Part shown: positions 1-58,041 of the stretch, piece after piece
Layout: each line of letters starts with the position of its first letter
Position numbering within the stretch: the stretch's first letter is position 1
Origin: an uncultured bacterium
Lineage (GTDB): Bacteria > Patescibacteriota > Minisyncoccia > UBA6257 > GWB1-50-10
Length of the DNA stretch: 64,000 nucleotides
Direction of reading: 5' to 3'
Assembly: GCA_963722655.1 (NCBI GenBank)
Contig: CAVRNT010000002.1
Location: forward strand, 71,461-135,460
Notes under the pieces: generated by a model
Databases searched by the model: none
The model's input: only the letters and a program-made list of their open reading frames with translations
What the model was told of the DNA's origin: nothing
Program-made: the position numbers and the translations under genes

Positions 1-107
1 AATATGGTAAACCGTCTAAGTCTTTCGCCGTCGTCGCGTCGGGGCTCTATGATCTCGGCAAGATTTTTTCTTTACAAAAAAACGAATATGTCCATTTTGT
101 AAAAGAT

Positions 108-566: not shown

Positions 567-567
567 G

Positions 568-2322: not shown

Positions 2323-2368
2323 AATCCGGTTGGGAAAATTCGCAATCAATAAATGAGGGAGACGATAA

Positions 2369-2752: not shown

Positions 2753-2762
2753 CCGCCGACCG

Positions 2763-4594: not shown

Positions 4595-9763
<5,169 letters not shown>

Positions 9764-9894
9764 AATTCCGGGTTATCCAGTACATAAGGAGTGTATTGTT
9801 GACGTGAGCGGCACGTTTACCATTCTTACGGACCGTTCCTCATCGCCTTACGATGAATCCAGAATCATTAAAAAAGAAAAAGGAGATGAGGATC

Positions 9895-10383
9895 ATGTCA
9901 TTCAACAAACATGAGAAGGTTGAAGTGGGATTCAACCAGGCGACGAGGCTCCGGCTCATCAAGACCGAACCCTTCATCGGCACCAACGATTACGGGAGGT
10001 ACTACCGCTATGACGTTCTCGACCTCGGCGACGACAAGGAGAAATCGTTCTTCGCCCCTGATTACCTCCATGAGGAGATGAAGGAGAAGGGGCTGGCCGC
10101 CGGGAAGGAATTCGCGGTGAAGAAGGTGCCCTTCAAGAATAACGGGAAACCTTCTTCGCGGATTGAGCTTTCCGTGAACGGCGCGGCTTCGCCACGAAGA
10201 GAAAACCATCAAGCATCGCCCAAGCTGAATTTCCGCGACATCATGCTGGAGTGCCTGAAGGACGCGGTCGAGATCGTGAATTCGGTGAAGGAGGTCCCGT
10301 TCCAGACGAATGATATCCGTTCCATCGCCGCGACGCTCTTCATCGCCAAGGTGAAGCAGTGGAATTACCGGGAAGGCGACTGA
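9895..10383 (+). CDS. hypothetical protein upstream of the SymE-like gene
   Basis: The ORF has an 'aaaaggag' SD 9 nt upstream of ATG 9895. Its stop overlaps the next start in a 'TGATCATG' junction. No recognisable domain. Confidence 0.5.
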   Translation: MSFNKHEKVEVGFNQATRLRLIKTEPFIGTNDYGRYYRYDVLDLGDDKEKSFFAPDYLHEEMKEKGLAAGKEFAVKKVPFKNNGKPSSRIELSVNGAASPRRENHQASPKLNFRDIMLECLKDAVEIVNSVKEVPFQTNDIRSIAATLFIAKVKQWNYREGD

Positions 10384-10385
10384 TC

Positions 10386-10679
10386 ATGGACAAGACGGAT
10401 AGCGCAGGGGCAGACACGGGTAAGCTGGCGGGTGACGGTGTGCGCAGACTCCGGAAAGTCCAGTATGCGTACTATGACCACGGCTCTGACGCGCCGCATC
10501 CAGTCATTCGGATAGCTGGGAAGTACCTTGAAAAATTCGGATTCAGAATCGGAGATACGATCGAGGTGGAGATCGGAAACGGTGAAATATCCATAAGCAA
10601 GCTGTCGGACTCCGTGGGGGATTACCTCAACGAAGCTGGTCCGGATTCCTCTGATGAATCCCAAAACAAAAGGGAGTAG
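10386..10679 (+). CDS. SymE-like (SymE_toxin / AbrB-fold) type I toxin family protein
   Basis: 'KVQYAYYDHGSDAPHPVIRIAGKYLEKFGFRIGDTIEVEIGNGEISIS' aligns with E. coli SymE '[48 protein letters not shown]'. Confidence 0.6.
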   Translation: MDKTDSAGADTGKLAGDGVRRLRKVQYAYYDHGSDAPHPVIRIAGKYLEKFGFRIGDTIEVEIGNGEISISKLSDSVGDYLNEAGPDSSDESQNKRE

Positions 10680-10697
10680 CTCAACTACTCCCTTTTT
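10668..10697 (+). terminator. rho-independent terminator after the SymE-like gene
   Basis: Perfect 12-bp stem aaaagggagtag / ctactccctttt with loop ctcaa, followed by a T-run. The stop codon lies inside the stem. Confidence 0.7.
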
Positions 10698-10722
10698 ACT
10701 TTACGAGAGAATCTAGTTCATC

Positions 10723-10752
10723 TTGACTCAGGCGAATATCCAAACATATACT
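10723..10752 (+). promoter_or_regulatory. sigma70-like promoter (TTGACT, 18 bp spacer, TATACT), probably giving a leaderless transcript for the 10760 gene
   Basis: Hexamers are seen in the sequence. The ATG at 10760 lies 7 nt downstream of the -10 and there is no SD. Confidence 0.45.
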
Positions 10753-10759
10753 TTTAATA

Positions 10760-11770
10760 ATGGATAAGGAAACTCAACTGAAATTCAGAATATCAAAGAT
10801 CGCCAATCAATTTTTCTTCATTACCAATTTGGCTGAATGGGATTTCAGTTGTAGGACGGAATATAGTGCCTTGTGGATTGAACACACTGGCCCTCTTAAT
10901 GCGGAGGAAAAAGAAACGCTCCTAGCGGTGAAGAAGATCATACAGGCACACAGTCCCTATCATTATGAGGATGGGCGATCAAATTCACTTTGGAATTGTT
11001 TCTACACGCTTTCAAGCAGTTCTGCTTGGAAACGTGCGAGACTCGCCCTCACCGATTCGGATTACAACCAATTGAAGCGGGCTTTCAATCTGTTCGATTG
11101 GCGCTTCAAGAGAATTTGGCGGCGTTCAAATCTGCAAAAGGACGTTTCGAGACTGAAGCAGCTATCTCAGGCAAGGAGTTGCCGTGTTGCCATTCGAGAA
11201 ATGTTCCACTTCTTGGGGCTGACGGACATTCCATCGCAGCTGGAGGTTGTCGCATTGATGTCCCCGCTTAGTGGCGATTCGGTGACTGCTGCGGGTGGTG
11301 CAAACGTGGATGATCGACATATTACTCTCGAAATCCCATCACTGAGGCCCAATACATGGGAATTGGAACACTCTCTAGGGGTTCTAATCCACGAGGTAGG
11401 CCATATCGCGATGAGAATAGGTGCGAAAGCGGGATCTCTTGTCAAGAATATGAGCGGGAACATTAGGTTCGGCCAGAATCAAAGGCCCTTTCGCGAAATT
11501 TTGGAGGAGACGATCATAGATTGCCTTGCCCCTTCTGGCTTTCTCGCTCAACATTACTTTCGGTTCAAGCCAACAACATTGTTCACAGAAGACATGCCAC
11601 GCATCTTCGAACACTTTCTCAGGTTCAAAAGCGGCCGTCGATATTCGCCGTACAAAGTTGGCCAATATTTTGTCTGGCAACTCTATCCAATCACCGCATC
11701 ATACATGGGGAACAAAAAGACCATCGACAAAGCCTTTGTCGAATGCGTTGTCAATTTACTGAAGAGGTAA
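10760..11770 (+). CDS. hypothetical protein with an HExxH zinc-metallopeptidase-like motif
   Basis: 336 aa. 'VLIHEVGHIAM' is followed ~30 aa later by 'EILEE'. AT-rich. Its 3' end overlaps the convergent rSAM gene by 20 nt. Confidence 0.5.
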   Translation: MDKETQLKFRISKIANQFFFITNLAEWDFSCRTEYSALWIEHTGPLNAEEKETLLAVKKIIQAHSPYHYEDGRSNSLWNCFYTLSSSSAWKRARLALTDSDYNQLKRAFNLFDWRFKRIWRRSNLQKDVSRLKQLSQARSCRVAIREMFHFLGLTDIPSQLEVVALMSPLSGDSVTAAGGANVDDRHITLEIPSLRPNTWELEHSLGVLIHEVGHIAMRIGAKAGSLVKNMSGNIRFGQNQRPFREILEETIIDCLAPSGFLAQHYFRFKPTTLFTEDMPRIFEHFLRFKSGRRYSPYKVGQYFVWQLYPITASYMGNKKTIDKAFVECVVNLLKR

Positions 11771-12881
11771 CATCAAGGGGCGTGGACTTTAGCTTACCGC
11801 TTGAGATAATATCTCTGATTCTCGTCTGGATATAACGGAAGGTTTCCTGCCGAGCCTCGCAATATGGATAGTCGCCGTCATATCTTCCGGAATGCCAATA
11901 CGACGCCTCTCGGCAGCCGCCACGGCAGAGGGATAGGTACGCGCACTTGAGACATTTTGCGTTTACGTGCACTGAACGCATCTTCCTTAGTTTATGTGTT
12001 TTCTTTGACGATAGGATTTTGATAAGCGGTTCGGAGAAAACATTTCCTAGGACAAATTCTTCGGATGAAAATGAACCGCATGGCATGACTGTCCCGTCTG
12101 GTGCCACCGTAACCATTCTCTTAAGACAAGATGAGCTGAAAGAACACAGCTGTGGCGGAATGCCGAGTAATGATTGCACCATACTGTATATCGGGTCCAG
12201 TGTCAGCATGGTCTCGTTGCTTGGGTCAACCCACAATTCGAAGGTAGTCCGATAAAGTTCGAAGAGTTCCTCATTGGTGGGGGCTTCCACTCGTCTGCCA
12301 TTTGGGGTGCTCATCAATGGTAGTAACGAGTAAGAGGTTGCTCCCGATGAAGAGAAGAAACGATATATCTCGGAACCCCGCAGAACATTTCTTTTGGTTA
12401 CAACGCATAGGAAGCTGAGGGGGAACTTCTTCTCCCGCATGAGTGTGATGGTATGAGAAATCTCCGCTTCAATACCTGGATCTCCCATTGTTCTTTGGAA
12501 CCTTTGCACATCAGGTGGGGCGTCATAGCTGACACCTACGGAAAACTTATTCTTGTTAAAGAATTCTAGCCATTCACCATTGATCAGCGTTCCATTGGTC
12601 TGCAAAGTGTTCTTGAAGACTGTTGCGTTTTTCCTGGTGATCTCAGTTTCGGTTTCAACGGCTGTCTCATAGAATTCTAACCCTGCCAACATTGGTTCGC
12701 CGCCATGCCAGGTGAATTTGACTGAGTCAAAGCCTCGCGACGCATTTCGGACCACATTCTGCATTTCAGCGACGGACATTTTGCACACGCCCTTCCTTGA
12801 AGCCATGACATAACAATCATAGCCACAATGCATATTGCATTCGGAACTGGTCTGAACGATGACACTAATTGTGTTGCCCAA
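11751..12881 (-). CDS. radical SAM enzyme with a C-terminal SPASM domain (peptide/protein-modifying maturase family)
   Basis: The N-terminal Cys cluster is 'CNMHCGYDC' (CX3CX3C spacing as translated) and a 'WHGGEPMLAG' SAM-binding motif follows. The C-terminal SPASM motifs are 'C-x10-G' and 'CLKCAYLSLCRGGC' (CX2CX5CX3C), plus a final 'YPYC'. The start is a TTG. Confidence 0.8.
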   Translation of the reverse strand: MGNTISVIVQTSSECNMHCGYDCYVMASRKGVCKMSVAEMQNVVRNASRGFDSVKFTWHGGEPMLAGLEFYETAVETETEITRKNATVFKNTLQTNGTLINGEWLEFFNKNKFSVGVSYDAPPDVQRFQRTMGDPGIEAEISHTITLMREKKFPLSFLCVVTKRNVLRGSEIYRFFSSSGATSYSLLPLMSTPNGRRVEAPTNEELFELYRTTFELWVDPSNETMLTLDPIYSMVQSLLGIPPQLCSFSSSCLKRMVTVAPDGTVMPCGSFSSEEFVLGNVFSEPLIKILSSKKTHKLRKMRSVHVNAKCLKCAYLSLCRGGCREASYWHSGRYDGDYPYCEARQETFRYIQTRIRDIISSGKLKSTPLDVTSSVN

Positions 12882-13057
12882 AAGAATTAGTCGCCCCCCA
12901 TACTAACGCGCGGTGCTCTCAATGGGTATGATCGTGCCGCGGCTCGTCAGAATGGTGCTCGTGCGTATCCGTGTATCTGTCGCAGTTCTTTGATTTGGAA
13001 GAGTCGTGACTCAGAAATTCCAACGCTTCTCTGACGACTCGGCCATGGAACTTTCAA

Positions 13058-15055
13058 ATGCTCTTTCACATACTAAAGCAAGTGAAATATGAACCTAGAG
13101 ATAGAGTCTATGTGGGGACTGATGACCCATCTGCTTACAAGTATTCAGTAGTAGATTCCCTTTCCATTTCAACAAAAGATGATGATTTTTTCTTTAAAGG
13201 AATTGGGAAGATTCTACTTAATCAGGGTCTAAATTGTGTGATTGGTCCACGAGGAGCGGGGAAATCCACAATGCTAGATGTCATTGCGTTGAGTTTGGGA
13301 AATTTAGATGTACTAAAAGAAAACAGAAATAACTACGTCGGGTATTTCTTCAAGACAGGTGACGCAGGTATCGTAAAGTCACTCGTAAGAAATTCCTCTA
13401 CCGGAGAAAATAAGGAGTTGTCGGCTGCAACGGCAAAGGCAAGTGGGTTCGTATTCGATTACTATCATCAGAAACAGATAGGTTACTTAGCCGATCCCAA
13501 TAACGAAGAAATTTTAAGTCGCTTTCTATTCGAGAAAATCTTCAAAGAAGGACGTGGGTTGGATTCAATATTCAGCGAGATGAATGAACAAAGAGATAAA
13601 TGTGTTTCGAGCCTTGCAATTAATAGAGAGAAAGTGGTCGCCTGTGAAAAGGAAATTGCCAAGGAAACAGATGTACGCGGGAAGATTGATGACAAAACCA
13701 ACAGAGCACAATTCCTTTCACAGGAGGAAATTAAACATCTATTAAATCAAAGGAATAAGGTAATTAAACTACGCGAACAAGTAAAAAGAATAAAAACGCG
13801 GGTCGATAGAATTGACGAAGAGCCACTTATTGCAGAAGGCGAATTGGTTGACTCTGCTTTTTTCTCAGACCTTAAGCTTAGTTCGGTTGACCCGGAAGGG
13901 ACACTAATCCCGGCCGAGTGGAAAAAATTAGAAAAAGATGCAAACGAGTTTGTGACATCCTTAGGCAAGACAAGGGTGAGCCTCGAATCAGAAGTTGTGG
14001 GTTTCACAAAGAAGGTTGTGGAGTTGGAACCGTTATTCAAGTTCGATCAGGAACTTGAGGGGATATGGAAACAAATCCAGGCAGAATCTAGCAAGAAGGG
14101 TGTCACTATAACAAAGATCGATCTGGAGCGGCTGGATGCGATTCAAAAGGAAGTTGCTTCATTAGAAAAACAGTTACAGACAATCGAGGCACACAAAAGA
14201 GAGAGAACGACCTTCCTTGAAGAACGAGGGAGGCTACTGAAGGAATACAACGATCACCTAGTCACGGTGAAGAGTAGTCTAGAAGGTAATTTTAGAGACC
14301 TACTGGATAAAGATGGCGCTATTCTTGAAAACACAATTAAATTGGAAGTGGAGATTAACCTATCCCTAGACTCTTATCTGTCGGTCATTGAGGAAAAAGC
14401 TCAGCACGAGGCCGGAAGTGATGTAGCAAGATTTCCTAATAGAAAGTCCCTCCTCGAGCTTTTTAAGAGTTTGACTGCAGAGAAAGTATTACGCGACTTA
14501 CGCAATAACTATTTTGAAGACTGGATTGGACCTGGCTTTGGCTCTGGTGGCTTGGACTATTTTAGGAAGATGTCGAATCGCGAGGAGGTCGCTATGTATA
14601 TTGAGGAGCAATTGCCAACCCTGACATCGCGATTGACCTGGAGGCCAGACCAATCAAAGGAATTTAAACCTCTGAGAAAATGCTCCATTGGTGAGAGAGG
14701 AACAGCGCTACTGAGCGTAATTTTGATCGCGGGCCGAGAACCACTTGTCATAGACCAACCCGAGGATGATCTCGACCATTTTTATTTATTTAAAACCCTC
14801 ACGCCAATAATCAAAGAAGTTAAGAAGAGAAGGCAATTATTATTTGCCACACACGACGCTAATATCGTTGTCAACGGTGATGCTGAGTTGATTCTGATTG
14901 TAGCCACGGATGATGGAAAATACGGTGATATTACTACCTCGTCGATAGAAGACTTGAGAAATAGGACGAGGATAATGGGCATATTGGAAGGTGGCGAGGA
15001 TGCTTTCACAAAAAGAGAGCAGAAGTACAATTTCCCTCGACAGAAATCATCTTAG
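13058..15055 (+). CDS. SMC/RecN/RecF-like ABC-type ATPase with a long coiled-coil insert (665 aa), possibly a conflict/defence-system ATPase
   Basis: Walker A 'GPRGAGKST' at aa ~65. A ~300 aa heptad-rich K/E/L region. Signature-like 'SIGERG', Walker B 'LVIDQPEDDLD' and H-loop 'FATHD' near the C-terminus. AT-rich island gene. Confidence 0.75.
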   Translation: MLFHILKQVKYEPRDRVYVGTDDPSAYKYSVVDSLSISTKDDDFFFKGIGKILLNQGLNCVIGPRGAGKSTMLDVIALSLGNLDVLKENRNNYVGYFFKTGDAGIVKSLVRNSSTGENKELSAATAKASGFVFDYYHQKQIGYLADPNNEEILSRFLFEKIFKEGRGLDSIFSEMNEQRDKCVSSLAINREKVVACEKEIAKETDVRGKIDDKTNRAQFLSQEEIKHLLNQRNKVIKLREQVKRIKTRVDRIDEEPLIAEGELVDSAFFSDLKLSSVDPEGTLIPAEWKKLEKDANEFVTSLGKTRVSLESEVVGFTKKVVELEPLFKFDQELEGIWKQIQAESSKKGVTITKIDLERLDAIQKEVASLEKQLQTIEAHKRERTTFLEERGRLLKEYNDHLVTVKSSLEGNFRDLLDKDGAILENTIKLEVEINLSLDSYLSVIEEKAQHEAGSDVARFPNRKSLLELFKSLTAEKVLRDLRNNYFEDWIGPGFGSGGLDYFRKMSNREEVAMYIEEQLPTLTSRLTWRPDQSKEFKPLRKCSIGERGTALLSVILIAGREPLVIDQPEDDLDHFYLFKTLTPIIKEVKKRRQLLFATHDANIVVNGDAELILIVATDDGKYGDITTSSIEDLRNRTRIMGILEGGEDAFTKREQKYNFPRQKSS

Positions 15056-15107
15056 TAGGACACTTGCGAATTTGATTTAAGCAGGCGAAAATTATTAAGG
15101 TGATACT

Positions 15108-15623
15108 ATGAATTTCTCTCTTAAACCGAATCCCCTAATAGCCCTTTGGGTGCCGGGCTTTCTGACGGTCACGGTGATTCTTCTCAGTGCCTATGTAGGC
15201 GGATCGCTAAGTGTGTTGAACTCAATCACGACGCTTCCATTTTACGCCATTGGCTTCATGGTGATTGTTGCCGGGTTTGCGGTGGGAGAATTTTTAGATA
15301 CGATTAGAGATGTCCTATGGGAGAGCTTTTTGGATCATCTCTGCAAAGGGAAGTTCAAGATTCAATGGGAATTCTTTTTCAACGGAGAAGAAAGACATAT
15401 AAAAAATCTTGAGGAATGGTATTACACGTACTACGAGTTAGATTTCAATTTGTTTGCGGGAGAGGTGATAGTCTACCTACTGTCTTGGTTCCCAGTAATC
15501 CACATAAGCCTCGGAGTTCAGCTTATAATGGCCTTCCCCGCAGCACTCTTTCTCATAAGTGCTCTTCTTGTAAGAGGAGAAATTAAAAAATTAATTGATG
15601 AACATTATGCCCAACAAAAGTAA
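15108..15623 (+). CDS. small polytopic membrane protein (hypothetical)
   Basis: 171 aa with 3-4 hydrophobic segments. It sits between the ATPase and the SET gene with small overlaps, an operon-like arrangement. Confidence 0.5.
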   Translation: MNFSLKPNPLIALWVPGFLTVTVILLSAYVGGSLSVLNSITTLPFYAIGFMVIVAGFAVGEFLDTIRDVLWESFLDHLCKGKFKIQWEFFFNGEERHIKNLEEWYYTYYELDFNLFAGEVIVYLLSWFPVIHISLGVQLIMAFPAALFLISALLVRGEIKKLIDEHYAQQK

Positions 15624-16017
15624 TCTTCCCCATATTGGCGTTTACACCAGAATCAAGCGTTCTGAGGTAGACGAGAACGGTGTTGGGGTATTTGCCATAC
15701 AATCAATTAAGAAAGGAACCAATATCTTCCCCGGCGACATCGCCAGGATGGTTCCTGTAGACGGCAAGCAGATTAGGAAATTACCGAAGGCAATAAAGAA
15801 ACTCTATGAGGAGTTTTGTGTCATCAAGAAAAGGAAAAACGGGAAAATATACCTATGTCCCAAAAGCTTCAATCTTCTAACGGTTGCATGGTACATAAAC
15901 GACTCTGATACACCCAATGTCCGGTGTGACAAAAACTATGACTTCTTCGCACTCAGAAATATCAGGGCCGGGGAAGAATTAACAGCAGATTATTCGACTT
16001 ACAGCGACGAGGATTAG
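15607..16017 (+). CDS. SET-domain protein (putative protein lysine methyltransferase)
   Basis: 'GVGVFAIQSIKKGTNIF' matches the SET-N GxG motif. 'WYINDSDTPNVRC' matches the NHSCxPN motif. 'ALRNIRAGEELTADYS' matches ELxxDY. Confidence 0.75.
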   Translation: MPNKSNLPHIGVYTRIKRSEVDENGVGVFAIQSIKKGTNIFPGDIARMVPVDGKQIRKLPKAIKKLYEEFCVIKKRKNGKIYLCPKSFNLLTVAWYINDSDTPNVRCDKNYDFFALRNIRAGEELTADYSTYSDED

Positions 16018-16278
16018 GCTCCAAATTCACTCGCCAAATCGGTAGTCTTTTCAAATGAGTTTGTCTTTGTCTCTTCCGTCAATTTCTCCCACCTTATTCT
16101 GTGCATTCCTTTCCATTAGGATAATCAGGTGGTGACAAAGCATCCGACGGTGGACCTATGCACGCCGAAACTTCTTGTGCTTTTAGATCTAGTCCAAACC
16201 GTTGCCATGCCTGCAGCTCTTTGATTATCTGATTCCAATCCTCACGTATTAGGGCTACTAAAGCTGAGTACATACACA

Positions 16279-16305
16279 ACCTACCAAAAGCCCTCATACA
16301 ATGAG
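16279..16305. terminator. bidirectional hairpin terminator between the SET gene and the PAP2-like gene
   Basis: aaaagccctcat-acaa-tgagggctttt, a perfect inverted repeat flanked by A/T runs. Confidence 0.5.
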
Positions 16306-16451
16306 GGCTTTTGGTTTATCTAAAGCTAAGAAAGGTTCTAGCTTGGGTGGTGCAAGGGGAAGGATCTAACCTCCGAATAGATTATACTTTCCCGTTGAGG
16401 AGAATCGTCCACTGAATTGCGCTTGAGCACTTTCCCAACAATAAGAAAATG

Positions 16452-17075
16452 CTAATGACACAACAACCGATCTTTCATTCTACCCCAATACCCTATGGAG
16501 ACAGTATATATGAAGAAAACTATGAAGAAGCTGGCAACAACGTCGATTGTATAGTGCCCCCTGCCCGCTATTATGAAGAACGACTCCAGTATCGCCAGCG
16601 CGAGCATCGCATATTTACTCTTCTTGTCCCGCCACGACATAAGGAAAAACAACATGAATACCTGACCGACATGCCCGCTGGGGAAAGTTCCTCCCGTAAC
16701 AAGGACCTTCCCCAAGAGATCGAACGTGCCGGGCTCCATTGGTGTGGGGAGAGGCGTCAACGGAAGTATCGCCGCCCGGAATAGCTGGAAAAGCGCTATG
16801 CACGCGAGGTATAAGGGTAAGTCCTCGTATGATTTCTTGCGAATCACATAGGCTACAAAGCCGATGTCCGCGACCAGAAGGATTATGTCGGCGATATTGG
16901 AGTAGGCAGGATTGAATCCAAACAGCCGAAAGCCGAGATCGTTAAGAACGGGTCTGCTGCTTGCCACGCTGGAATAATGCGTCGAGACCGCATCCAGATA
17001 GCATCCTACGACCAGTAAGACCGCCGACAACACGAGTGCGGCCCAATACTTTTTATTGTATTTACATTTATGCAC
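16452..17075 (-). CDS. PAP2_C / sphingomyelin-synthase-like membrane phosphotransferase family protein
   Basis: Polytopic membrane protein with 'GGTFPSGHVG' (SGH motif) and 'GRGHYTIDVVASFF' (HYTxDV motif). Paralog of 53161..53829. Confidence 0.65.
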   Translation of the reverse strand: MHKCKYNKKYWAALVLSAVLLVVGCYLDAVSTHYSSVASSRPVLNDLGFRLFGFNPAYSNIADIILLVADIGFVAYVIRKKSYEDLPLYLACIALFQLFRAAILPLTPLPTPMEPGTFDLLGKVLVTGGTFPSGHVGQVFMLFFLMSWRDKKSKYAMLALAILESFFIIAGRGHYTIDVVASFFIVFFIYTVSIGYWGRMKDRLLCH

Positions 17076-17165
17076 CGTAGAGGGAACTGATTCGCTCTAT
17101 TATACCTTAACGCCATCCTCGCAAAATGGGGTGGCGTTAGGCATTCATCTCAAATAAATTTTTTC

Positions 17166-17582
17166 CTACTCACCGCTCACCGTGACCGTATAGGTTTGAG
17201 TCGTTCCATCCTGCGCCGTAACAGTGTATGTCACCGGATAAGTAAAATCCTGCGCTACGTCGGAGTCAGGATAAATTGTCGCACCGTTTGCAACCACGAT
17301 TGTCGGAACGAGGTTCGTCACATCCGTGCCCGCGGGAACCGTGAGCGTTACAGTGTCACCCATATTATCAACGATTCCGTCCACTTCCGGACTTAAGCCC
17401 ATGAAGTTAAATGAGGTGATGGATGTATCCGAACTCATCGGAGAGGCCTGGGTGGTCTGGGTAGTAGTTTGAGCGGCTGGCTGGCTATTTTGTGCCGGTG
17501 CCGGGTTCCGGGCGATAAAATACCATACGCCTCCGATAACGACGATTATCGCGACAATTAAAACAATTGCCTTTGTTGACAT
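17166..17582 (-). CDS. membrane-anchored extracytoplasmic hypothetical protein
   Basis: N-terminal TM 'AIVLIVAIIVVIGGVWYFI', a T/Q-rich linker and a beta-rich C-terminal domain. GC-rich. Confidence 0.5.
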   Translation of the reverse strand: MSTKAIVLIVAIIVVIGGVWYFIARNPAPAQNSQPAAQTTTQTTQASPMSSDTSITSFNFMGLSPEVDGIVDNMGDTVTLTVPAGTDVTNLVPTIVVANGATIYPDSDVAQDFTYPVTYTVTAQDGTTQTYTVTVSGE

Positions 17583-17928
17583 TATAATTATTGGTAACTA
17601 TTCCTTGCCATAACCGACCTTTATAAAATCTCTTCATAAACGAAACAACGTAGCCATCAGGATATTCAGCCGCAGTTTACGTTCATTTCCACTCGTGAGT
17701 TAATACTCTTTAGATGCTAAAAAGGGTTTAACTACCTGGTGACAAGGCGTCCTTCAGATACTTGTCTCTGAAAAAAAGTTCTAACGTCGATCACCAAGAC
17801 CTACAAGCAAAATCTCTTGACGCTAGCGCATCAAGGTATTATTTTAATCTTCAGTTCGACAAAAAAGGAGGGGTTTGATGAGAAAGACCTAGGTTTTCTT
17901 CGCGGTCCTGACCGGGATATCGCTTTTT

Positions 17929-18351
17929 ATGATCCCCACTTATTTGGTCACGACTCCGGTGAGCGGCGCTACCGGTGACAATACGCCTCCCCGAGACAAG
18001 GAGATCAAGCAATTGTCAGTCAGTATCGATTCGGTCGTAAATACCGCCGGCCGACTATCCAAAGACCGATTCTTCATGCGCGAGTTCATCACCGACGAGC
18101 AGGATTCCGTAATTCAGCAGATAATTTATTTCAACTACGACAGCGTAAGGATCATCCAATGCTCTTTCGACACGTTGGAAGAGACCTACGCCGCACTCGA
18201 CAGCGCGACGTATAAGGCTAGGGTCCAGCGGATAATCGAAATTGAAAACGGCGTGAGTCGGATCTGCGACCAAGCGGAACGGGCACTGCGAAACGCTATG
18301 CGGGTCTACATGATCCGGCAAGAGTTGTACAAGAGCACCCGTTCGATATGA
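17929..18351 (+). CDS. hypothetical protein. An in-frame upstream RBS+ATG (17878) is separated from this ORF by a TAG at 17890
   Basis: 'aaggagg' sits 7 nt before ATG 17878. 'MRKT*VFFAVLTGISLFMIPTYLV' reads like a signal peptide interrupted by a stop. Confidence 0.4.
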   Translation: MIPTYLVTTPVSGATGDNTPPRDKEIKQLSVSIDSVVNTAGRLSKDRFFMREFITDEQDSVIQQIIYFNYDSVRIIQCSFDTLEETYAALDSATYKARVQRIIEIENGVSRICDQAERALRNAMRVYMIRQELYKSTRSI

Positions 18352-18411
18352 ACGGCGAACCACGGCACCGAAAGGCGACCGTGGTTTTTATTCGCGTGGT
18401 ATAATAAAACC

Positions 18412-18903
18412 ATGAAAAAACTGGTCTATGTTTTGATAATCATCGTGGTCGTCGTGGCCCTATGGCTGCTTTTGGCCTCCACGAAGCCCGTCGTCGCCCC
18501 CACAGGCGAGAATCAAACTTCGTCCGTCCCGGCCACCGGGAGTTCGAACCCAGCCAAATCGGCCTACTTCGACCAGCGTTCCAACACCTCGCTCGGAACG
18601 TATCTCACTGACGCTAAGGGAATGACGCTCTATACCTTCGCGAACGATACGGCGGGCGCGCCGACCTGCGCGGGCGCCTGCGCCGCCAAGTGGCCGGCTT
18701 ACGGCCCGGATATAAGCGCGACCGGCACGGCCCCGATCAACCTGCCGATGCTCCCCCAAAACGTCGGCACCGTGAAGGGCTTGAACGGACTGGTCCAATT
18801 CACCTGGAAGAATATGCCGCTCTATTACTACTTCGAAGATAAGGTGTCCGGCGACACCTACGGCGAAGGCATCGGCGGGGTCTGGTACGTCGTGAAGCTA
18901 TAG
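18412..18903 (+). CDS. secreted lipoprotein-like protein with a COG4315-type repeat ('secreted repeat of unknown function')
   Basis: Signal peptide, then 'LTDAKGMTLYTFANDTAG...CAGACAAKWPA' and a second 'LYYYFEDKVSGDTYGEG' repeat. Confidence 0.55.
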   Translation: MKKLVYVLIIIVVVVALWLLLASTKPVVAPTGENQTSSVPATGSSNPAKSAYFDQRSNTSLGTYLTDAKGMTLYTFANDTAGAPTCAGACAAKWPAYGPDISATGTAPINLPMLPQNVGTVKGLNGLVQFTWKNMPLYYYFEDKVSGDTYGEGIGGVWYVVKL

Positions 18904-18957
18904 AAAGAAATAAAAGCTGATTTTCCCAACGTTTACGGCTATAATGAGACGGATAAA

Positions 18958-19293
18958 ATGGCCGTCTTCAAAAGCAAGGTCCTTTGGATACCGCTTGGGC
19001 TGACCATCGCGCTCACAGCGGCCGGTCTCATCGTCGGTCTCGTGAAGATCAGCGGTTTGGGATACCCGGTCATCATCCACTTCGACCAGTTCCACGGCGT
19101 GGACTTCATCGGCACGGCGACCGATTTCTGGGGCGTTTGGCTCGGCGGTTTGGCACTGCTAATCCTGAACGGTATCTTGAGCGAGGTCTTCTTCCGCCGC
19201 GAACGATTCCTCGCCTACCTTTTCCTTTCCGCGAACGCGCTCCTTGCGCTCTTGATGTTCATCTTCGCGGTCGTCGTCGCCGCGGCCAATTGA
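18958..19293 (+). CDS. small integral membrane protein (hypothetical)
   Basis: 111 aa with three hydrophobic helices. Confidence 0.45.
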   Translation: MAVFKSKVLWIPLGLTIALTAAGLIVGLVKISGLGYPVIIHFDQFHGVDFIGTATDFWGVWLGGLALLILNGILSEVFFRRERFLAYLFLSANALLALLMFIFAVVVAAAN

Positions 19294-19298
19294 AATAA

Positions 19299-20330
19299 AT
19301 GGAGACCATTCTAATCATCGCCATCGTAATGCTCGCCGCCGCCATTATCCTCGTCGGCGCCGCCATCTTCATTTTCCGGAAAAACAGGACGCCCCACGAT
19401 GGCCAGTCGCTCGTCCTTCTCCAAAACCAGATGAATGAAATCACGCGCACTCTGGATTCCAAGCTCGCCGAGTCCACCCGCGTCATCCAGAGCCAGTTCG
19501 GCCAGAGCGCCAAGATTATCAAAGACGTCACCGAACGCCTCACCAAGCTCGACGAGACGAACAAGCAAGTGGTGAACTTTGCCGACCAATTGAAGAACCT
19601 CCAGGACATTCTGAAGAACCCCAAGCAGCGGGGGATCCTCGGCGAGTATTACTTGGAGACCGTCCTCAAGAACGTATTGCCGCCCGGCGCCTTCCAAATG
19701 CAGTACCCCTTCAAGGACGGTACGATCGTGGACGCCGCCATCTTCGTGAAGGACAAGGTCATCCCCATCGATTCCAAGTTCAGCTTGGAGAACTATAACC
19801 GCATCCTGGAAACGCGGAGCCCGGAAGAGAAGGAGCGCCTGGAGGGCGCCTTCCGGAACGACCTCAAAATGCGTATCGACGAGACGTCCAAATACGTGAA
19901 ACCGGAGGAGGGGACGATGGACTTCGCCTTTATGTTCATCCCCTCCGAGGCGGTCTTCTACGACGTCCTGATCAACAAGGTGGGCGCTGTGACGGGCAAA
20001 GACCTCATTGAGTACGCCTTCGGCAAGAAGGTCATCATCGTTTCGCCGACCTCCTTCCTGGCCTATCTCCAGACGGTCCTCCAGGGCCTCAAAGCGCTCC
20101 AGATCGAGGAATCGGCCAAGGAGATCCGGAAGAGAGTGGAAGAGCTCGGCAAGCATCTCGGGAGCTACGAGACCTATATGAAAAAACTCGGCGGTCATCT
20201 TGGCACGACCGTCGGGATGTACAACAACGCCTATAAGGAGCTGGGGAAGATCGACAAGGACGTCCTGCGCATTACGGGCGAGGCGGTGGATGTCGAGCCG
20301 ACGATCATCGAACCACCCAACGAAGAATGA
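19299..20330 (+). CDS. rmuC: DNA recombination protein RmuC
   Basis: N-terminal TM, long coiled-coil, and a C-terminal RmuC nuclease-like region 'IPIDSKFSLENY...FAFMFIPSEAVF'. Confidence 0.85.
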   Translation: METILIIAIVMLAAAIILVGAAIFIFRKNRTPHDGQSLVLLQNQMNEITRTLDSKLAESTRVIQSQFGQSAKIIKDVTERLTKLDETNKQVVNFADQLKNLQDILKNPKQRGILGEYYLETVLKNVLPPGAFQMQYPFKDGTIVDAAIFVKDKVIPIDSKFSLENYNRILETRSPEEKERLEGAFRNDLKMRIDETSKYVKPEEGTMDFAFMFIPSEAVFYDVLINKVGAVTGKDLIEYAFGKKVIIVSPTSFLAYLQTVLQGLKALQIEESAKEIRKRVEELGKHLGSYETYMKKLGGHLGTTVGMYNNAYKELGKIDKDVLRITGEAVDVEPTIIEPPNEE

Positions 20331-21184
20331 TAGAAAAACTGCTTGCATTCTACTCCGCTCTCGGCCGGCCCCTAACTTTGATGGAGACCGCCCGCCTCGG
20401 CGATCAACCGCCCCAGGCGACGTTGAAAGAGCTGGAGCGGCTAACTGCTCAAGGAAAGGTTAATAAAGAAGACGGTTTCTTCTCGCTTGTTGGCGCCGGT
20501 TTGAGCGCTACGGAGAGGAAGAGACAGGATCTCCTCTCGGACCTCAAATGGAAAAAACTTTTGCGTCTCGCCAAATGGTTCCGCTTCGCGCCTTTCATTG
20601 AATTCGTCATCGCGAGCGGCTCGATGGCCATTGGCAACGTCCGCGCGAGCTCGGATTTCGACGTTCTGGTTGGCGTGCGCTCCGGTCGGATCTTCACAGC
20701 CCGTTATTTTTTGAACTTCATCTTCGGCCTCTTGGGGAAAAGGCGCCTCGACGACGCAACGGATTCCAGCCCCGACAGGTTTTGTTTCAACCATTTAATA
20801 ACGGAGGTGACCTTCGCGCGCGGCGCGCCGGACACCTACGATCAGCTGCTTTACCGGAACATGGTCCCACTCTGGGGAGATTCGGGAGCGATCCGGGCAT
20901 TTTTCCGGGCGAACACATGGTGCGGTGTGACGGAGCTCGCCGCCCAAAATCTAAGATCCCTGCCCGACGGGCGGAATATCATCGGTCGACTTTGGGAACT
21001 TTTCCTCGGCGGGCGTTTCGGCGACCTCGTTGAATATAAGCTCATCGCACCGATCGCCAAACGACGCCTTGCGGTCTACGTTTCCGGCAAACCGCAAGAG
21101 GGGAGGGTGGTCGTTTCCGACGCGGAATTGGAGTTCCACTTCAACCTTCGATACGAAAAGAGGTTCACCGGCCCTGAGTTGTGA
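20327..21184 (+). CDS. nucleotidyltransferase-domain (Pol-beta superfamily) protein, overlapping the rmuC stop
   Basis: 'ASGSMAIGNVRASSDFDVLVG' matches the GS...SD.D NTase motif. An N-terminal ~80 aa region could be a winged-helix domain. Confidence 0.5.
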   Translation: MIEKLLAFYSALGRPLTLMETARLGDQPPQATLKELERLTAQGKVNKEDGFFSLVGAGLSATERKRQDLLSDLKWKKLLRLAKWFRFAPFIEFVIASGSMAIGNVRASSDFDVLVGVRSGRIFTARYFLNFIFGLLGKRRLDDATDSSPDRFCFNHLITEVTFARGAPDTYDQLLYRNMVPLWGDSGAIRAFFRANTWCGVTELAAQNLRSLPDGRNIIGRLWELFLGGRFGDLVEYKLIAPIAKRRLAVYVSGKPQEGRVVVSDAELEFHFNLRYEKRFTGPEL

Positions 21185-21254
21185 ACAACTCCGGCTTGCG
21201 GTTCACTCCGATAGTTTTAGAATTTAGAAAGAACAACAAAAACCGGAGGTATTC

Positions 21255-21644
21255 TTGAAATACGACGCGGAATCGTTGGTAGCCAAGTGTCTCTCAAGGC
21301 ACGGCATGACTTTTGAACACGCCATCAAGAACGGTTCTCTGGACAGGGTCGGTATTGATTTCAGGATCTATCTTGAAGAACGCGAGAAAATGATAGATCT
21401 TCAGGTCAAGACGTCCGATCGGGGCATAACGACCGGCTTGATACTGCCGTTGTCCAATCCACCGCTCGAAACGTACCCGTATCTTTCGGAAACGATGCTT
21501 TGGAGGGTTTCCAACCACATGAAGAAGCATCCCAACGTAAGATACATACTTTTCGTGGCGCGAATCTGCAGAAGACGACCGGAGGACGTGATAATCTCCG
21601 AGATCTGGCGGGAAACCAAAAGATTGTTCCTGCTAGCCGCGTAA
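21255..21644 (+). CDS. hypothetical protein
   Basis: 129 aa ORF in a coding-like context. A hairpin terminator follows at 21654-21680. Confidence 0.4.
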   Translation: MKYDAESLVAKCLSRHGMTFEHAIKNGSLDRVGIDFRIYLEEREKMIDLQVKTSDRGITTGLILPLSNPPLETYPYLSETMLWRVSNHMKKHPNVRYILFVARICRRRPEDVIISEIWRETKRLFLLAA

Positions 21645-21691
21645 AAGAGTTCATCGGGGCTGCCTTCGGGCGGCCCTTTTCTTTCCACCTC

Positions 21692-21720
21692 TTGCATTTT
21701 TAAACGGCTCATGATACAAT
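21692..21720 (+). promoter_or_regulatory. strong sigma70-like promoter (TTGCAT, 17 bp spacer, TACAAT)
   Basis: -35 at 21692-21697 and -10 at 21715-21720, read directly from the sequence. Confidence 0.6.
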
Positions 21721-21803
21721 ACGGGAGATGTGAAGTGCAGAGTTTGCCTTGCTGCGATGCCGGTTTGCCGGAAGCGCAGAAATCAAGGAAAACCCTTCCA
21801 ATT

Positions 21804-21834
21804 CCTCCCGGCGTCAGCCGGGAGGTTTGTTTTT
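21804..21834 (+). terminator. rho-independent terminator ~85 nt downstream of the promoter above. Together they bound a ~105 nt RNA
   Basis: Perfect 9-bp stem cctcccggc / gccgggagg with loop gtca, then tttgttttt. Confidence 0.65.
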
Positions 21835-21987
21835 ACCCGCCACTTCATATTTAGCGAGAAATAACCTATGCTATTTGGAAGGACGAGGTGGGGCCGCTGG
21901 AGCGGCCACGGGTGAGCACTCTCACATCATTCAAAAAATTGGAGGTCACCACCGTGGCCGCTCTGGCGGCCCGACCAGTGTTTTTAA

Positions 21988-24507
21988 ATGTCATTCCTGA
22001 TCAAGTTATTCAAGGACAGTAACCTAAAACGCTACCAAAACCTGGTAGCGGTTATTAACGCCTTGGAACCGGAACTCCAGAAGCTTTCCGGCGAAGAGCT
22101 CAAGGCGCATTCCCTCGCGCTCAAAGAAGAGGTCAAAAATGGCAAGACCCTGGACGAAGCTATGCCCCTGGCCTTCGCCCTGGCCCGGGAATCCGGCAAG
22201 CGCACGCTCGGCCAGCGCCACTTCGACGTCCAGCTCATCGGCGGCATGGCCCTCCACGACGGCAAGATCGCCGAGATGCTCACGGGTGAAGGCAAGACCT
22301 TGGCCGCGACGGCGCCGGCCTACCTGAACGCGCTTGCGGGTGAAGGCGTCCACGTCGTCACGGTGAACGACTACCTCGCGAAGCGCGATACGACCTGGAT
22401 GGGCCAGATCTACGACGCCTTGGGACTCAAGGTGGCCTGCATCGTCCACGATTCTTCTTATATTTACGACCAAAGTTTCCAAGGAGAGGAGAAGGCTGAT
22501 AAGGAGCGCGACGCGCTCGGTTCCTTCCGGGTGGCCGAGAAATTCCTCCGACCCGTCACGCGCCGAGAAGCCTACGCGGCGGACATCACTTACGGCACGA
22601 ACCATGATTTCGGTTTTGATTACCTCCGCGACAACCTCGCCATCCGCTCCGCCGACCGCGCCCAGAGGAAACACAATTTCGCCATCATCGACGAGGTGGA
22701 CAGCATTCTAATCGACGAGGCCCGAACGCCGCTCATCATCGCCGCGCCCGACATGCAGGCGAGCGAGTTCTACAAGACCTTCGCCAAGGTCGTCGAGCGC
22801 TTGAACGATGACGAGGACTACGAAACGGACGAGAAGCTCAAGACCGTGAGCATTACGGACGCGGGGATAGAAAAGGTGGAGAAGATGACCGGCATAGAGA
22901 ACATCTACGCGCCGGAGAACCTCCGCCTCGTCCATTTCCTCCAGGAGAGCTTGAAGGCCAAGGCCCTTTTTAAGCGCGACCGCGACTACATCGTCCGCCA
23001 GGGCGAGGTCATCATCGTGGACGAGTTCACGGGGCGGATGCTCATGGGCCGGCGCTACTCCTGGGGCCTCCACCAGGCGATCGAGGCCAAGGAAGGCGTG
23101 CCGGTCCAGAACGAGAACCGCACCTTCGCCCAGGTCACCATCCAGAACTACTTCCGTCTTTACGGGAAGATCGCCGGAATGACCGGCACCGCCGAAACCT
23201 CGGCCGAGGAGTTCCAGAAGGTCTACAAATTGGACGTCGTCTCCATCCCGCCGAACCGGCCGATGGTACGCCAAGACCTACCGGACCTCATTTACAAGAA
23301 CAAGGACGCCAAATATCGGGCCGTCGCGGAGGACGTAAAGAAGCAACGGGCGGCCGGGCGACCGATCCTCGTCGGCACGACATCCATCACGAACAACGAG
23401 GTCATTTCCTCGTACCTCACCAAGGCCAACATCCCGCACGAGGTCTTGAACGCCAAAAACCACGAACGAGAAGGGGAGATCATCGCCCAGGCCGGGCGGG
23501 CGGGGGCCGTGACGGTCGCGACCAACATGGCCGGCCGCGGCGTAGACATCATCTTGGGCGGCAATCCGCCGGACAAGGCAGAGGCAGAGAAGATCAAGGC
23601 GGCGGGGGGGCTCCACGTCGTCGGCACCGAACGCCATGAGGCGCGCCGCATCGACAACCAGCTCCGCGGGCGGAGCGGCCGGCAAGGCGACCCCGGCTCC
23701 ACCCAGTTCTACCTTTCACTCGAGGACGACCTAATGCGCATCTTCGGCGGCGACCGCATCAAGGGGATGATGCAGACGCTGAACTTCCCGGAGGACACGC
23801 CCATTAGGTCCAAGATCGTCACCAAATCCGTGAACCAGGCCCAAACGAAGGTGGAGGGGGCGAACTTCGACATCCGCCATCACCTCCTGGACTTCGACGA
23901 CGTCTTGAACAAACAGCGCAGCGCGATCTACGCCCGCCGCAGCAAGTTCATCGAGGCCGGTGAGAAGAACGAGATCCTGCCGCTCCTTTCGGAGACCGTC
24001 CGCCACTTCGCGGAAGGGTACGAGCAGGCGCTCCGCGCCCAGATGGATATCGAACCAGACAAGGTCGGCGATATCGAAAAGCAGATAGCGGAGGCTGAAG
24101 AGCGCCTGAAGAAGTTGCCGGAAACGCTCGAGCCGCAAAAAGCCGCGCTCTTGGGCCAACATATGACGCAGATCTTGGATACGCTTTGGGTGGACCATCT
24201 GGAGAACCTGGAATCCCTCCGCGAATCGGTGAACATCCGCGCCTACGGCCAGCATGAGCCGCTCGTCGAGTACCGCCGCGACGCCCACGGCCTGTATCAG
24301 CGCCTCCAAAACGCCTTCGAATCGCTCCTCTGGGACACATTCGTCCAGGTCCTGAATGTCGATCTGAATCAAGTGCGTCCTGCACAAAACACGATTAGCA
24401 TCGGCCCGCAGGGTCAAGCGCCCTCCGGACCGAAAAAGGACATCGGCCGCAACGACCCTTGTTGGTGCGGTTCCGGGAAGAAATTTAAGAAATGCCACGG
24501 AGCTTAG
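21988..24507 (+). CDS. secA: preprotein translocase ATPase SecA
   Basis: Full-length match to SecA: the N-terminus 'FDVQLIGGMALHDGKIAEMLTGEGKTL', 'ATNMAGRGVDI', and the C-terminal zinc finger 'CWCGSGKKFKKCHG'. Confidence 0.97.
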   Translation: MSFLIKLFKDSNLKRYQNLVAVINALEPELQKLSGEELKAHSLALKEEVKNGKTLDEAMPLAFALARESGKRTLGQRHFDVQLIGGMALHDGKIAEMLTGEGKTLAATAPAYLNALAGEGVHVVTVNDYLAKRDTTWMGQIYDALGLKVACIVHDSSYIYDQSFQGEEKADKERDALGSFRVAEKFLRPVTRREAYAADITYGTNHDFGFDYLRDNLAIRSADRAQRKHNFAIIDEVDSILIDEARTPLIIAAPDMQASEFYKTFAKVVERLNDDEDYETDEKLKTVSITDAGIEKVEKMTGIENIYAPENLRLVHFLQESLKAKALFKRDRDYIVRQGEVIIVDEFTGRMLMGRRYSWGLHQAIEAKEGVPVQNENRTFAQVTIQNYFRLYGKIAGMTGTAETSAEEFQKVYKLDVVSIPPNRPMVRQDLPDLIYKNKDAKYRAVAEDVKKQRAAGRPILVGTTSITNNEVISSYLTKANIPHEVLNAKNHEREGEIIAQAGRAGAVTVATNMAGRGVDIILGGNPPDKAEAEKIKAAGGLHVVGTERHEARRIDNQLRGRSGRQGDPGSTQFYLSLEDDLMRIFGGDRIKGMMQTLNFPEDTPIRSKIVTKSVNQAQTKVEGANFDIRHHLLDFDDVLNKQRSAIYARRSKFIEAGEKNEILPLLSETVRHFAEGYEQALRAQMDIEPDKVGDIEKQIAEAEERLKKLPETLEPQKAALLGQHMTQILDTLWVDHLENLESLRESVNIRAYGQHEPLVEYRRDAHGLYQRLQNAFESLLWDTFVQVLNVDLNQVRPAQNTISIGPQGQAPSGPKKDIGRNDPCWCGSGKKFKKCHGA

Positions 24508-58026: not shown

Positions 58027-58041
58027 CTAATACTAATTTAA

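Follow-up and report, generated by a model that had tools for sequence, protein, structure and literature searches.

Genomic islands mobilised by serine recombinases, i.e., integrative mobilisable or conjugative elements, combine a large serine recombinase, an excisionase-like HTH_17 gene and coupling-protein-like ATPases of the TraG/TrwB type with AT-rich, swappable cargo that lies between the backbone genes. An element of this kind, ~18.5 kb in length, extends into the stretch of DNA analysed here (the window), which comprises 64,000 nucleotides (nt) of contig CAVRNT010000002.1 from an uncultured bacterium of the Parcubacteria (Patescibacteria, candidate phyla radiation, CPR). Like the described islands, the element possesses an orphan N6/N4 DNA methyltransferase, and it has a sister element with other cargo. 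Unlike these islands, it contains no recognised relaxase, origin of transfer (oriT) or secretion apparatus/mating-pore genes, it resides in a CPR host, and no tRNA gene lies beside it (the closest one being at 34762). The stretch from 10700 to 16151/16181 of the window is best read as the cargo arm of this element, integrated in the Parcubacteria chromosome and composed of three unrelated cassettes, two of which are probable relics; the probability of this reading is estimated at roughly 0.75. As integrative-element cargo the feature is of a known and ordinary kind; two of its components, a trio of genes resembling those for peptides that are ribosomally synthesised and modified post-translationally (RiPPs) and a pair formed by a transmembrane (TM) protein and a SET-domain protein, are uncharacterised. 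The locus documents a family of CPR serine-recombinase elements that swap defence-type and peptide-modification cassettes, in a group of bacteria whose mobile elements and secondary metabolism are poorly known.

The cassettes can be compared with three groups of described systems. The ATPase of the second cassette shares with TrlF (NF045780) and Ppl (NF042955) the ABC/SMC core with its Walker A motif, a long coiled-coil insert and the C-terminal D-loop region. It lacks the N-terminal PHP (HxH) phosphoesterase domain of these proteins, and scores below both curated cut-offs. Minimal prokaryotic and viral SET lysine methyltransferases consist of a single SET domain of ~130 amino acids (aa) with the motifs GxG, N-x-S-x-x-PN and ELxxxY, as does the enzyme of the third cassette. 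This enzyme differs from them in being obligately paired with an orphan four-helix membrane protein, the two reading frames overlapping, in belonging to a family with members on mobile elements and in defence islands, and in the canonical His of the NHS motif, which is D, N or H in its family. The first cassette is a trio of a precursor peptide, a radical S-adenosylmethionine (SAM) enzyme with a SPASM domain, and a protein with an HExxH motif; in the Fxs system, too, an HExxH partner is genetically linked to the maturase. The trio further resembles the radical SAM/SPASM systems for cyclophane RiPPs (DynA, and the 3-CyFE such as HtkB/HaaB, PMC11499958), as its SPASM maturase is closest to the clade of anaerobic sulfatase-maturing enzymes (anSME), DynA and cyclophane-forming enzymes, its short precursor is encoded directly upstream of the maturase, and aromatic-x-D/N triplets are repeated in the precursor core. 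Literature searches on TrlF, on SET domains in defence islands, and on radical SAM plus HExxH proteins in Patescibacteria returned nothing specific.

Base composition and element backbone

The GC content is 0.448 in the region 10700-17150 and 0.562 in 17151-64000, and none of the 5.45-kb windows in the host part falls below 0.525 (mean 0.563, standard deviation 0.017). As the drop is far outside the normal variation of the window, it must be considered real. In a 1-kb sliding profile, GC amounts to 0.41-0.49 at ~10.5-16.5 kb, 0.50-0.54 immediately to the left and 0.54-0.63 from 18.5 kb on. The fall occurs in steps, with values of 0.47 for the HExxH and radical SAM genes, 0.42 for the ATPase, TM and SET genes, and 0.48-0.50 at 16.15-18.4 kb. 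Codon usage shows the same deviation. GC at third codon positions (GC3) is 0.52 in the HExxH gene, 0.52 in the radical SAM gene, 0.42 in the ATPase gene, 0.47 in the TM gene and 0.52 in the SET gene, compared to 0.748 ± 0.092 in the 18 long host open reading frames (ORFs) that served as reference; the codon adaptation index relative to host usage is 0.40-0.46 for the island genes and 0.66 ± 0.08 for the host ORFs. The sharp GC drop described in a first-pass annotation of this DNA is therefore borne out by both the GC and the codon-usage profile. The left border that it set at ~10.7 kb corresponds to a genuine compositional step, which lies, however, inside the element and not at its edge. The features of the element and of its AT-rich arm are as follows (window positions; + forward strand, - reverse strand).

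1-16181, no strand: in-window part of the ~18.5-kb serine-recombinase element, read as integrated; starts ~1.9 kb before position 1, right end at 16151-16181
4597-8587, no strand: low-complexity junk; AT microsatellite, then ~600 A, ~3000 T and 36 C
9895-10383, +: 162-aa backbone gene upstream of the SymE gene; GC3 0.75, host-like
10386-10679, +: SymE-like (AbrB-fold) toxin gene; Pfam SymE_toxin 1.2e-8, above cut-off; last backbone gene before the AT-rich cargo
10672-10697: terminator hairpin and T-run 3' of the SymE gene, read from the sequence
10723-10752: promoter-like site upstream of the HExxH gene, score 10/12
10760-11770, +: HExxH protein, 336 aa, predicted gluzincin-type metallopeptidase of an unnamed family; partner of the radical SAM gene
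11751-12881, -: radical SAM/SPASM enzyme, 376 aa, TTG start; convergent with the HExxH gene, 20-bp overlap; Pfam Radical_SAM and SPASM
12919-13023, -: precursor-peptide gene, 5'-truncated, 34 aa, TTG start; frame open only to 13053; core ...THEHHSDEPRHDHTH
13047-13072, +: junction sequence GGAACTTTCAAATGCTCTTTCACATA, which supplies the ATG and first five codons (MLFHI) of the ATPase ORF
13058-15055, +: TrlF/Ppl-family ABC/SMC-like ATPase, 665 aa, without the N-terminal ~260-aa PHP domain
15108-15623, +: four-helix membrane protein, 171 aa, orphan family; first gene of the TM-SET pair
15607-16017, +: minimal SET-domain methyltransferase, 136 aa; Pfam SET 3e-11, 44.1 bits against a cut-off of 22.4; 17-bp overlap with the TM gene
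16152-16181, no strand: 30-nt overlap of element contig and host contig (k=31 assembly); branch point, probable right attachment junction

An independent assembly of the same sample contains the element as a separate contig, the Logan contig ERR10755942_195319 (18,539 bp; run ERR10755942; loci L003 and L001). This contig corresponds to window positions 1-4594 with 99.6% identity and to 8591-16181 with 99.8% identity, and ends at 16181. Where the window has the low-complexity junk, the Logan contig shows 4.4 kb of normal sequence, including the genes that are lost under the junk, i.e., a DCD-like gene, a 450-aa FAD-type gene, an AP_endonuc_2 gene, a 190-aa gene and part of a TrwB-like gene. The 32 differences between window and contig, most of which are single-base indels, are all located at 3216-4585 and 9024-9274, within ~700 bp of the junk, and no difference occurs anywhere in 9275-16181. 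The recombinase copy of the window is frameshifted only beside the junk. On the Logan contig the 654-aa large serine recombinase, which consists of Resolvase, Recombinase and HTH domains, and the 504-aa and 444-aa TraG/TrwB-like genes are intact, and are therefore not remnants. The recombinase/TraG 'debris' that had been described as bordering the AT-rich stretch is thus an assembly artefact, and instead of lying beside mobile remnants the stretch forms cargo inside an apparently intact integrative element. The homopolymer artefact of the source assembly can be regarded as an annotation trap, since it reads as mobile-element debris. In a second assembly (ENA) a frameshifted copy of the TM gene is present on a contig of 18,488 bp.

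The gene order of the element starts with a 173-aa gene, the excisionase-like HTH_17 gene (61 aa), the N6/N4 DNA methyltransferase (670 aa), a TraG-D_C gene (504 aa) and a 127-aa gene. These are followed by the serine recombinase (654 aa), the DCD-like, 450-aa FAD-type, AP_endonuc_2 and 190-aa genes, and the TrwB/TraG-like ATPase (444 aa), and the order ends with the 162-aa gene, the SymE-like toxin, and the HExxH, radical SAM/SPASM, ATPase, TM and SET genes. The composition along this order is a mosaic, with GC values of 0.41 in the left cargo, 0.54-0.58 in the TraG and recombinase genes, 0.41-0.44 in the DCD block, 0.52 in the TrwB and SymE genes, 0.46-0.48 in the HExxH and radical SAM genes, and 0.41-0.43 in the ATPase, TM and SET genes. 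The backbone genes have a host-like GC3 of 0.68-0.75. The sister element L084 (L numbers denote compared loci) has a recombinase of 75%, a TrwB-like protein of 62%, a SymE copy of 58% and a full-length ATPase (916 aa) of 72% identity, and carries different cargo. The backbone of this mosaic has host-like codon usage, and its AT-rich cargo blocks are read as separate acquisitions. A scan of IMG/VR with the TrwB-like backbone gene found nothing.

Two further observations concern the backbone. The 162-aa gene and the SymE-like toxin gene (9895-10679) form a pair with host-like GC. The AT-rich block that is hidden by the junk (L001 1504-5237; GC 0.41-0.44) contains four genes, for a dCTP-deaminase-like (DCD) protein, a 450-aa FAD/NAD-binding-type protein, an AP_endonuc_2/UvdE-like TIM barrel and a 190-aa protein. 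No PADLOC model matches this block, which could be a nucleotide- or DNA-modification module or a defence module.

Three cargo cassettes

The HExxH protein of the first cassette has no Pfam family and, in an NCBIfam library in which the presence of TIGR04267, the model of the Fxs-type HExxH domain, is assumed and unconfirmed, matches no model at E ≤ 0.01. Searches of the Protein Data Bank (PDB) by sequence and with Foldseek likewise give no significant match; the best Foldseek hits of its AlphaFold2 model (pLDDT 86.9) are weak ones to gluzincins, namely M61 (E 0.21), followed by M1 and PPEP-1. The family has 11 clusters of close members, and a profile search extends it to 489 clusters at 50% identity. 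The residues H211, E212, H215 and E250 are invariant in 11 sequences, as are the motifs NQFFFIxNLxEWxFSCR, TAAGGAN, ITLExP, HExxH, E250 and WQLYP. The IMG/VR scan with this family found nothing.

The radical SAM enzyme matches the NCBIfam models of anSME (218 bits) and DynA (203 bits) best, and all maturase models, including those of cyclophane-forming enzymes, are below cut-off. Its identification as an anaerobic sulfatase-maturing enzyme (TIGR03942) was rejected, as the score of 218 bits compares to a cut-off of 349; a sulfatase is present neither in the window nor among the scanned neighbours at L098, L103 and L111. The SPASM domain (Pfam SPASM 2.1e-10, TIGR04085 1.3e-16) is intact, with the motif CLKCAYLSLCRGGC (CX2CX5CX3C) present. 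The cluster-binding motif of the radical SAM domain reads CNMHCGYDC (CX3CX3C), compared to CX3CX2C in 11 out of 11 relatives, so that the one-residue insertion is unique among the 12 sequences. The gene also lacks an ATG start.

The association between both genes is conserved. The neighbourhood of the HExxH gene was compared in the window and 27 other loci, 20 of which (window included) hold enough downstream DNA to be usable. A radical SAM/SPASM gene directly follows the HExxH gene in 17 of these 20 loci, in convergent orientation in 15 and co-directionally in two; the adjacency is missing at L093, L108 and L117. The relatives with this module have a GC content of 0.30-0.40. Further conserved genes, such as a transporter or a second protease, were considered as trio members and rejected, as no consistent neighbour was found. 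IS3-family transposase genes are located immediately upstream of the HExxH gene at L094 (6874-7961) and L111 (538-1125), which suggests that insertion sequence elements move the trio. Locus L115 contains two tandem HExxH paralogues ahead of the radical SAM gene (116-2158).

Directly upstream of the radical SAM gene and on the same strand, homologous ORFs of 56-67 aa are present at L094, L098, L101, L103 and L105. The encoded precursors consist of a leader NFxGxDLxxxDxxKLPxxLxCI and a core HxYHSDxPRxDHxRD; at L111-L118 the corresponding peptides are shorter and divergent, and rich in W/H/Y-x-D/N. The window copy has lost the N-terminus of the leader and retains the core. No NCBIfam model matches the precursor peptides. 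The aromatic-x-D/N (omega-x-D/N) triplet occurs 25 times in 275 C-terminal residues, as compared with a frequency of 0.007 per residue in the remaining small ORFs from these regions and with 13.6 ± 2.8 triplets in composition-preserving shuffles (P ~ 2e-4), statistics which are post hoc because the precursor ORFs were picked by eye. The pattern matches the omega1-X2-X3 motif logic that is followed by triceptide cyclophane synthases (PMC11499958), and by analogy a cyclophane-type cross-linking chemistry may be proposed for the trio, with the HExxH gluzincin-like peptidase presumably removing the leader peptide.

Several properties set the trio apart from the cyclophane RiPP systems. Its maturase is below all NCBIfam maturase cut-offs and its HExxH protein lacks an NCBIfam match, the peptidase gene is convergent and not co-transcribed, no transporter is conserved nearby, and the family is apparently centred on CPR and groundwater genomes. 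The trio, of which intact copies occur at L101 and L103 and a damaged copy in the window, is a candidate RiPP unit; that it represents a genuine, so far undescribed peptide-modification system is proposed tentatively, at somewhat less than even odds. If this is correct, the trio would constitute a new, largely CPR-borne cyclophane-type peptide family that moves with IS3 and integrative elements. At L093 the HExxH and radical SAM/SPASM genes are 3 kb apart and the radical SAM protein is 27% identical to the window enzyme; here the enzyme is preceded by a 50-aa peptide (2114-2266) that is unlike the others and has a Cys/Asp-rich core (...MCPCDDCDPCDYEAR), which suggests a different substrate class.

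The ATPase of the second cassette is matched by the NCBIfam model of TrlF (3.3e-83), at model positions 259-944 only and with 280.9 bits against a cut-off of 350, and by the models of Ppl from PADLOC (3.8e-30) and NCBIfam (111 bits against a cut-off of 1000). The core (Pfam AAA_21 and SMC_N) has a Walker A motif GPRGAGKST and a Walker B/D-loop motif LVIDQPEDDLD, and the protein shares 58-72% identity with full-length members of the family. Among the matches listed, nearly all full-length homologues, which are 48-72% identical, are ~890-980 aa long and begin with the PHP domain (...WDLHVHTP...). Full-length relatives sit on mobile elements, e.g., the sister element L084. The homology of the window ATPase starts at 13064-13073, corresponding to residue ~258 of P0002, and the frame upstream of this point is closed. 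A tblastn search for the missing 257 PHP residues finds no trace of them in the window or the element. The alignment with TrlF of an E. coli plasmid (893 aa) gives the same picture, the PHP part being unmatched. The gene is another annotation trap, as automated pipelines would still call this beheaded Ppl/TrlF-type gene intact.

The domain calls of the first-pass annotation are reproduced by Pfam (Radical_SAM and SPASM, AAA_21/SMC_N, SET and PAP2_C, with no Pfam family for the HExxH and TM proteins). Its description of the genes as 'conflict-system-like' holds for the ATPase, which is a truncated defence-type gene, but not for the HExxH and radical SAM genes, which form a RiPP-like peptide-modification module. 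A side observation concerns the ATPase relative P0005, which is found on four recovered contigs in an operon of methyltransferase, ATPase and SNF2 helicase. At L085-L087 this operon is identical on three contigs and encodes an N6/N4 methyltransferase (800 aa), a full-length TrlF-like PHP-ATPase (958 aa) and an SNF2/ResIII helicase (979 aa); at L085 it is located on an integrase/relaxase element. It looks like a restriction-modification or BREX-like defence system around a TrlF-type ATPase.

The precursor fragment on the reverse strand and the ATPase fragment on the forward strand are positioned back to back across ~40 nt (13033-13072). A second copy of the junction 26-mer at this site, differing by one mismatch, lies at the very end of contig L088 (5-30), which also carries QatABCD, a TM-SET pair and a serine recombinase; no other copy was found in the window, in the compared loci (L001, which is the same element, excepted) or in IMG/VR. 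The 26-mer may belong to a backbone gene or mark a site at which recombination recurs. A simple course of events can be proposed for both truncations. Initially, the precursor-radical SAM unit and the PHP-ATPase unit would have been divergently transcribed. A single deletion or illegitimate recombination at ~13.03-13.07 kb would then have removed both 5' ends together with both promoters, the ATPase gene losing its first ~260 codons, i.e., the PHP phosphoesterase domain, in the same event. The TM-SET pair is promoter-less.

The shared truncation, together with the insertion in the iron-sulfur motif of the radical SAM enzyme, indicates that the first and second cassettes are probably non-functional relics, a loss of function that is judged from sequence. 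Four observations weigh against this part of the interpretation. The ATPase ORF begins with ATG and is open over all of its 665 aa. The recurrence of the junction 26-mer in L088 implies that the PHP-less ATPase could, instead of being a relic, be a fusion kept by selection. The 34-aa TTG-initiated peptide, in which the core is kept, could still be made, and the CX3CX3C motif might still bind a cluster.

The third cassette looks intact. The TM protein has no Pfam family, and PDB searches by sequence and with Foldseek give no significant match. Its AlphaFold2 model shows four long helices, and its family consists of 15 clusters in 5.8 billion proteins, with the invariant motifs MNxSLxPxP and NLEEWY; the IMG/VR scan with this family found nothing. 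The SET motifs GVGVFA, N-x-S-x-x-PN and GEELT-x-x-Y are kept in five orthologues. In all five independent contexts the SET gene (131-136 aa) follows the TM gene, either overlapping with it or spaced by at most 38 nt. The pair is located after the truncated ATPase in the window, after QatABCD on the recombinase-bearing element at L088 (81/83% identity), after a two-component system at L091/L092 and after BatA at L096. At L095 it is part of a defence island with a Schlafen/AlbA protein, a DrmD-like helicase, an OLD/AriA-like ATPase and type III restriction-modification. In three of the five contexts the pair thus lies beside a defence-type gene or system. No PADLOC model matches the TM or SET proteins.

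A conserved ATPase-TM-SET triple was considered and rejected, as the L095 ATPase is unrelated to that of the window beyond the fold. The DNA similarity between the window and L088 spans exactly 15108-16016, and from both observations it follows that TM-SET is self-contained. The most that can be inferred from the sequences is that the pair forms a membrane-anchored protein methyltransferase unit; as a mobile module linked to defence loci it would be new.

The strongest of the alternative explanations combines the second and third cassettes. The ATPase, TM and SET genes could form one working defence operon, with the PHP-less ATPase as sensor, the membrane protein as effector and a methyltransferase, the truncation representing an adaptive domain loss or fusion. 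The three genes are indeed arranged on one strand, with a 52-nt gap followed by a 17-nt overlap, and at L095 the TM-SET pair likewise follows an ABC/OLD-type ATPase inside a defence island; the intact, ATG-initiated ATPase ORF and the recurrence at L088 of the 26-mer that supplies its start codon fit this explanation as well. Nevertheless, the explanation is considered unlikely. The PHP domain is kept in nearly all close full-length homologues among the matches listed, the ATPases of L095 and the window share no homology apart from the fold, and TM-SET occurs without any ATPase at L088, L091 and L096. Moreover, the similarity with L088 starts exactly at the TM start codon, and PADLOC has no model for either protein. 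The reading as separate cassettes with a truncated ATPase is therefore preferred, and the island, which had been taken as one unit, is better described as three independent cassettes that differ in GC and in their relatives.

Right border and relatives of the host

The right border of the element is marked by a break between contigs. Logan contig L002 (6071 bp, from the same run) is 100% identical to window 16152-22222, and its genes include those for PAP2_C, a DUF5018 protein, Lipoprotein_15 and RmuC. An overlap of 30 nt, as found with the element contig, is that of unitigs which meet at a branch node of a k=31 graph, and therefore more than one path is present at 16152-16181 in the sample. 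Since the element contig stops at 16181 and L002 starts at 16152, the element end is located at ~16.15-16.18 kb and the PAP2_C gene is chromosomal. Positions 16152-16181 are the probable element-chromosome junction and right attachment site, at which we infer integration by the serine recombinase. The overlap is separated from the SET stop codon by 135-165 nt, and from the PAP2_C terminator hairpin, beyond which it lies, by ~110 nt. In consequence of the contig overlap, the right border given by the first-pass annotation as 17150 has to be moved to ~16152-16181, and PAP2_C, which it had included among the island genes, belongs to the host-side contig; instead of its seven ORFs, six credible genes are counted in 10700-17150.

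In the sister element L088 the SET gene is directly followed by a 186-aa gene, to which the 173-aa gene on the left edge of the element contig shows 37% identity, in an alignment that starts a single residue away from the edge. What forms the two extremities of the 18.5-kb contig thus lies side by side in a relative, a result that supports, together with the 18,488-bp ENA contig, a discrete unit. A search for direct or inverted (att) repeats shared by the junction region 16020-16450 with the sister elements, the element or the window returned nothing but the terminator hairpin of PAP2_C. There are no tRNA or non-coding RNA genes at the borders, and the tRNA genes of the window are located only at 34.8 and 58.0 kb.

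These contigs also bear on a second alternative, in which the join between element and host is an assembly chimera and a free plasmid-like 18.5-kb circle has been stitched to the chromosome at a shared 30-mer. The source assembly is demonstrably in error close by, where it has 4 kb of homopolymer junk and indels in clusters, a separate contig of ~18.5 kb is present in two assemblies (18,539 and 18,488 bp), and the two ends of the element contig adjoin in the sister element. The ends of the Logan contig, however, do not overlap each other, so that it is not closed as a circle, and the two Logan contigs agree with window 9275-22222 in every base across the join. A serine-recombinase element is, moreover, expected to be present both integrated and excised, which makes a circle compatible with integration. 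A chimera is accordingly judged improbable, slightly more so than the defence operon, and integration is retained.

The RmuC gene (19299-20330) was used to find relatives of the host. It matches only Patescibacteria/Parcubacteria genomes, at identities of at most 77%. Of the 80 RmuC loci that were compared, 66 hold enough upstream DNA to reach the distance of the junction. The recurrent synteny in these 80 loci is restricted to TM111-RmuC-285aa-SecA. The HExxH, radical SAM, ATPase, TM171, SET, DUF5018, 140-aa and Lipoprotein_15 genes are present in none of the 80 loci (± 10 kb), and PAP2_C is present once. The same cassettes are found in unrelated contexts elsewhere. The absence of the island genes from the RmuC loci of relatives favours acquisition, and with the foreign composition and the unrelated contexts it upholds the proposal of horizontal acquisition; the comparison of related genomes that had been suggested as a check is thereby available, albeit with distant relatives.

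A number of points qualify the integration and the timing of the gain. The available relatives are all distant, so that lack of the island in them is weak evidence on recent gain, and the gain is not datable. The left end of the element is outside the window, neither att repeats nor an empty site were recovered, and the recombinase-mediated integration and the exact end rest on the contig break plus composition.

A native, vertically inherited origin of the low-GC DNA, for example as a variable surface or stress region, would accord with the GC of the neighbouring host-side PAP2_C, DUF5018 and 140-aa genes, which is also below the host mean, and with the generally AT-rich genomes of CPR bacteria (0.30-0.40 in the relatives with HExxH and radical SAM genes), but it is very improbable in view of the contiguity of the stretch with the recombinase/TraG backbone on a separate 18.5-kb contig that breaks at the junction, the occurrence of the cassettes in unrelated genomes beside IS3 transposases or recombinases, and their absence from the RmuC neighbourhoods of 80 relatives.

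Host-side genes and a second low-GC islet

Adjacent to the element, the following host-side features are present.

16283-16315: terminator hairpin of the PAP2_C gene
16452-17075, -: PAP2_C membrane phosphatase/transferase-like gene; Pfam PAP2_C 34.2 bits against a cut-off of 27; on host contig L002

The PAP2_C gene has a GC3 of 0.63, and a homologue with 31% identity adjoins RmuC in the relative L058. The host-side genes at 16152-18400, i.e., those for PAP2_C, a DUF5018-domain protein and a 140-aa protein, are of intermediate GC (0.48-0.52), and with the exception of one PAP2_C they are not syntenic with RmuC in relatives. The sequence from 17166 onwards had been described as GC-rich core genes; in its first part, 17166-18400, GC amounts to 0.48 and the genes show no synteny in relatives. 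The region 16152-18400 has the appearance of a variable region older than the element, which was inserted into it.

A second low-GC islet (0.41-0.46) is located at 57400-59300, around tRNA-Gln (57956-58027). It contains a 100-aa gene on the reverse strand (57552-57854), and a gene on the forward strand (58042-58716) for a 224-aa protein with an HELMH motif, which is unrelated to the HExxH family of the island.

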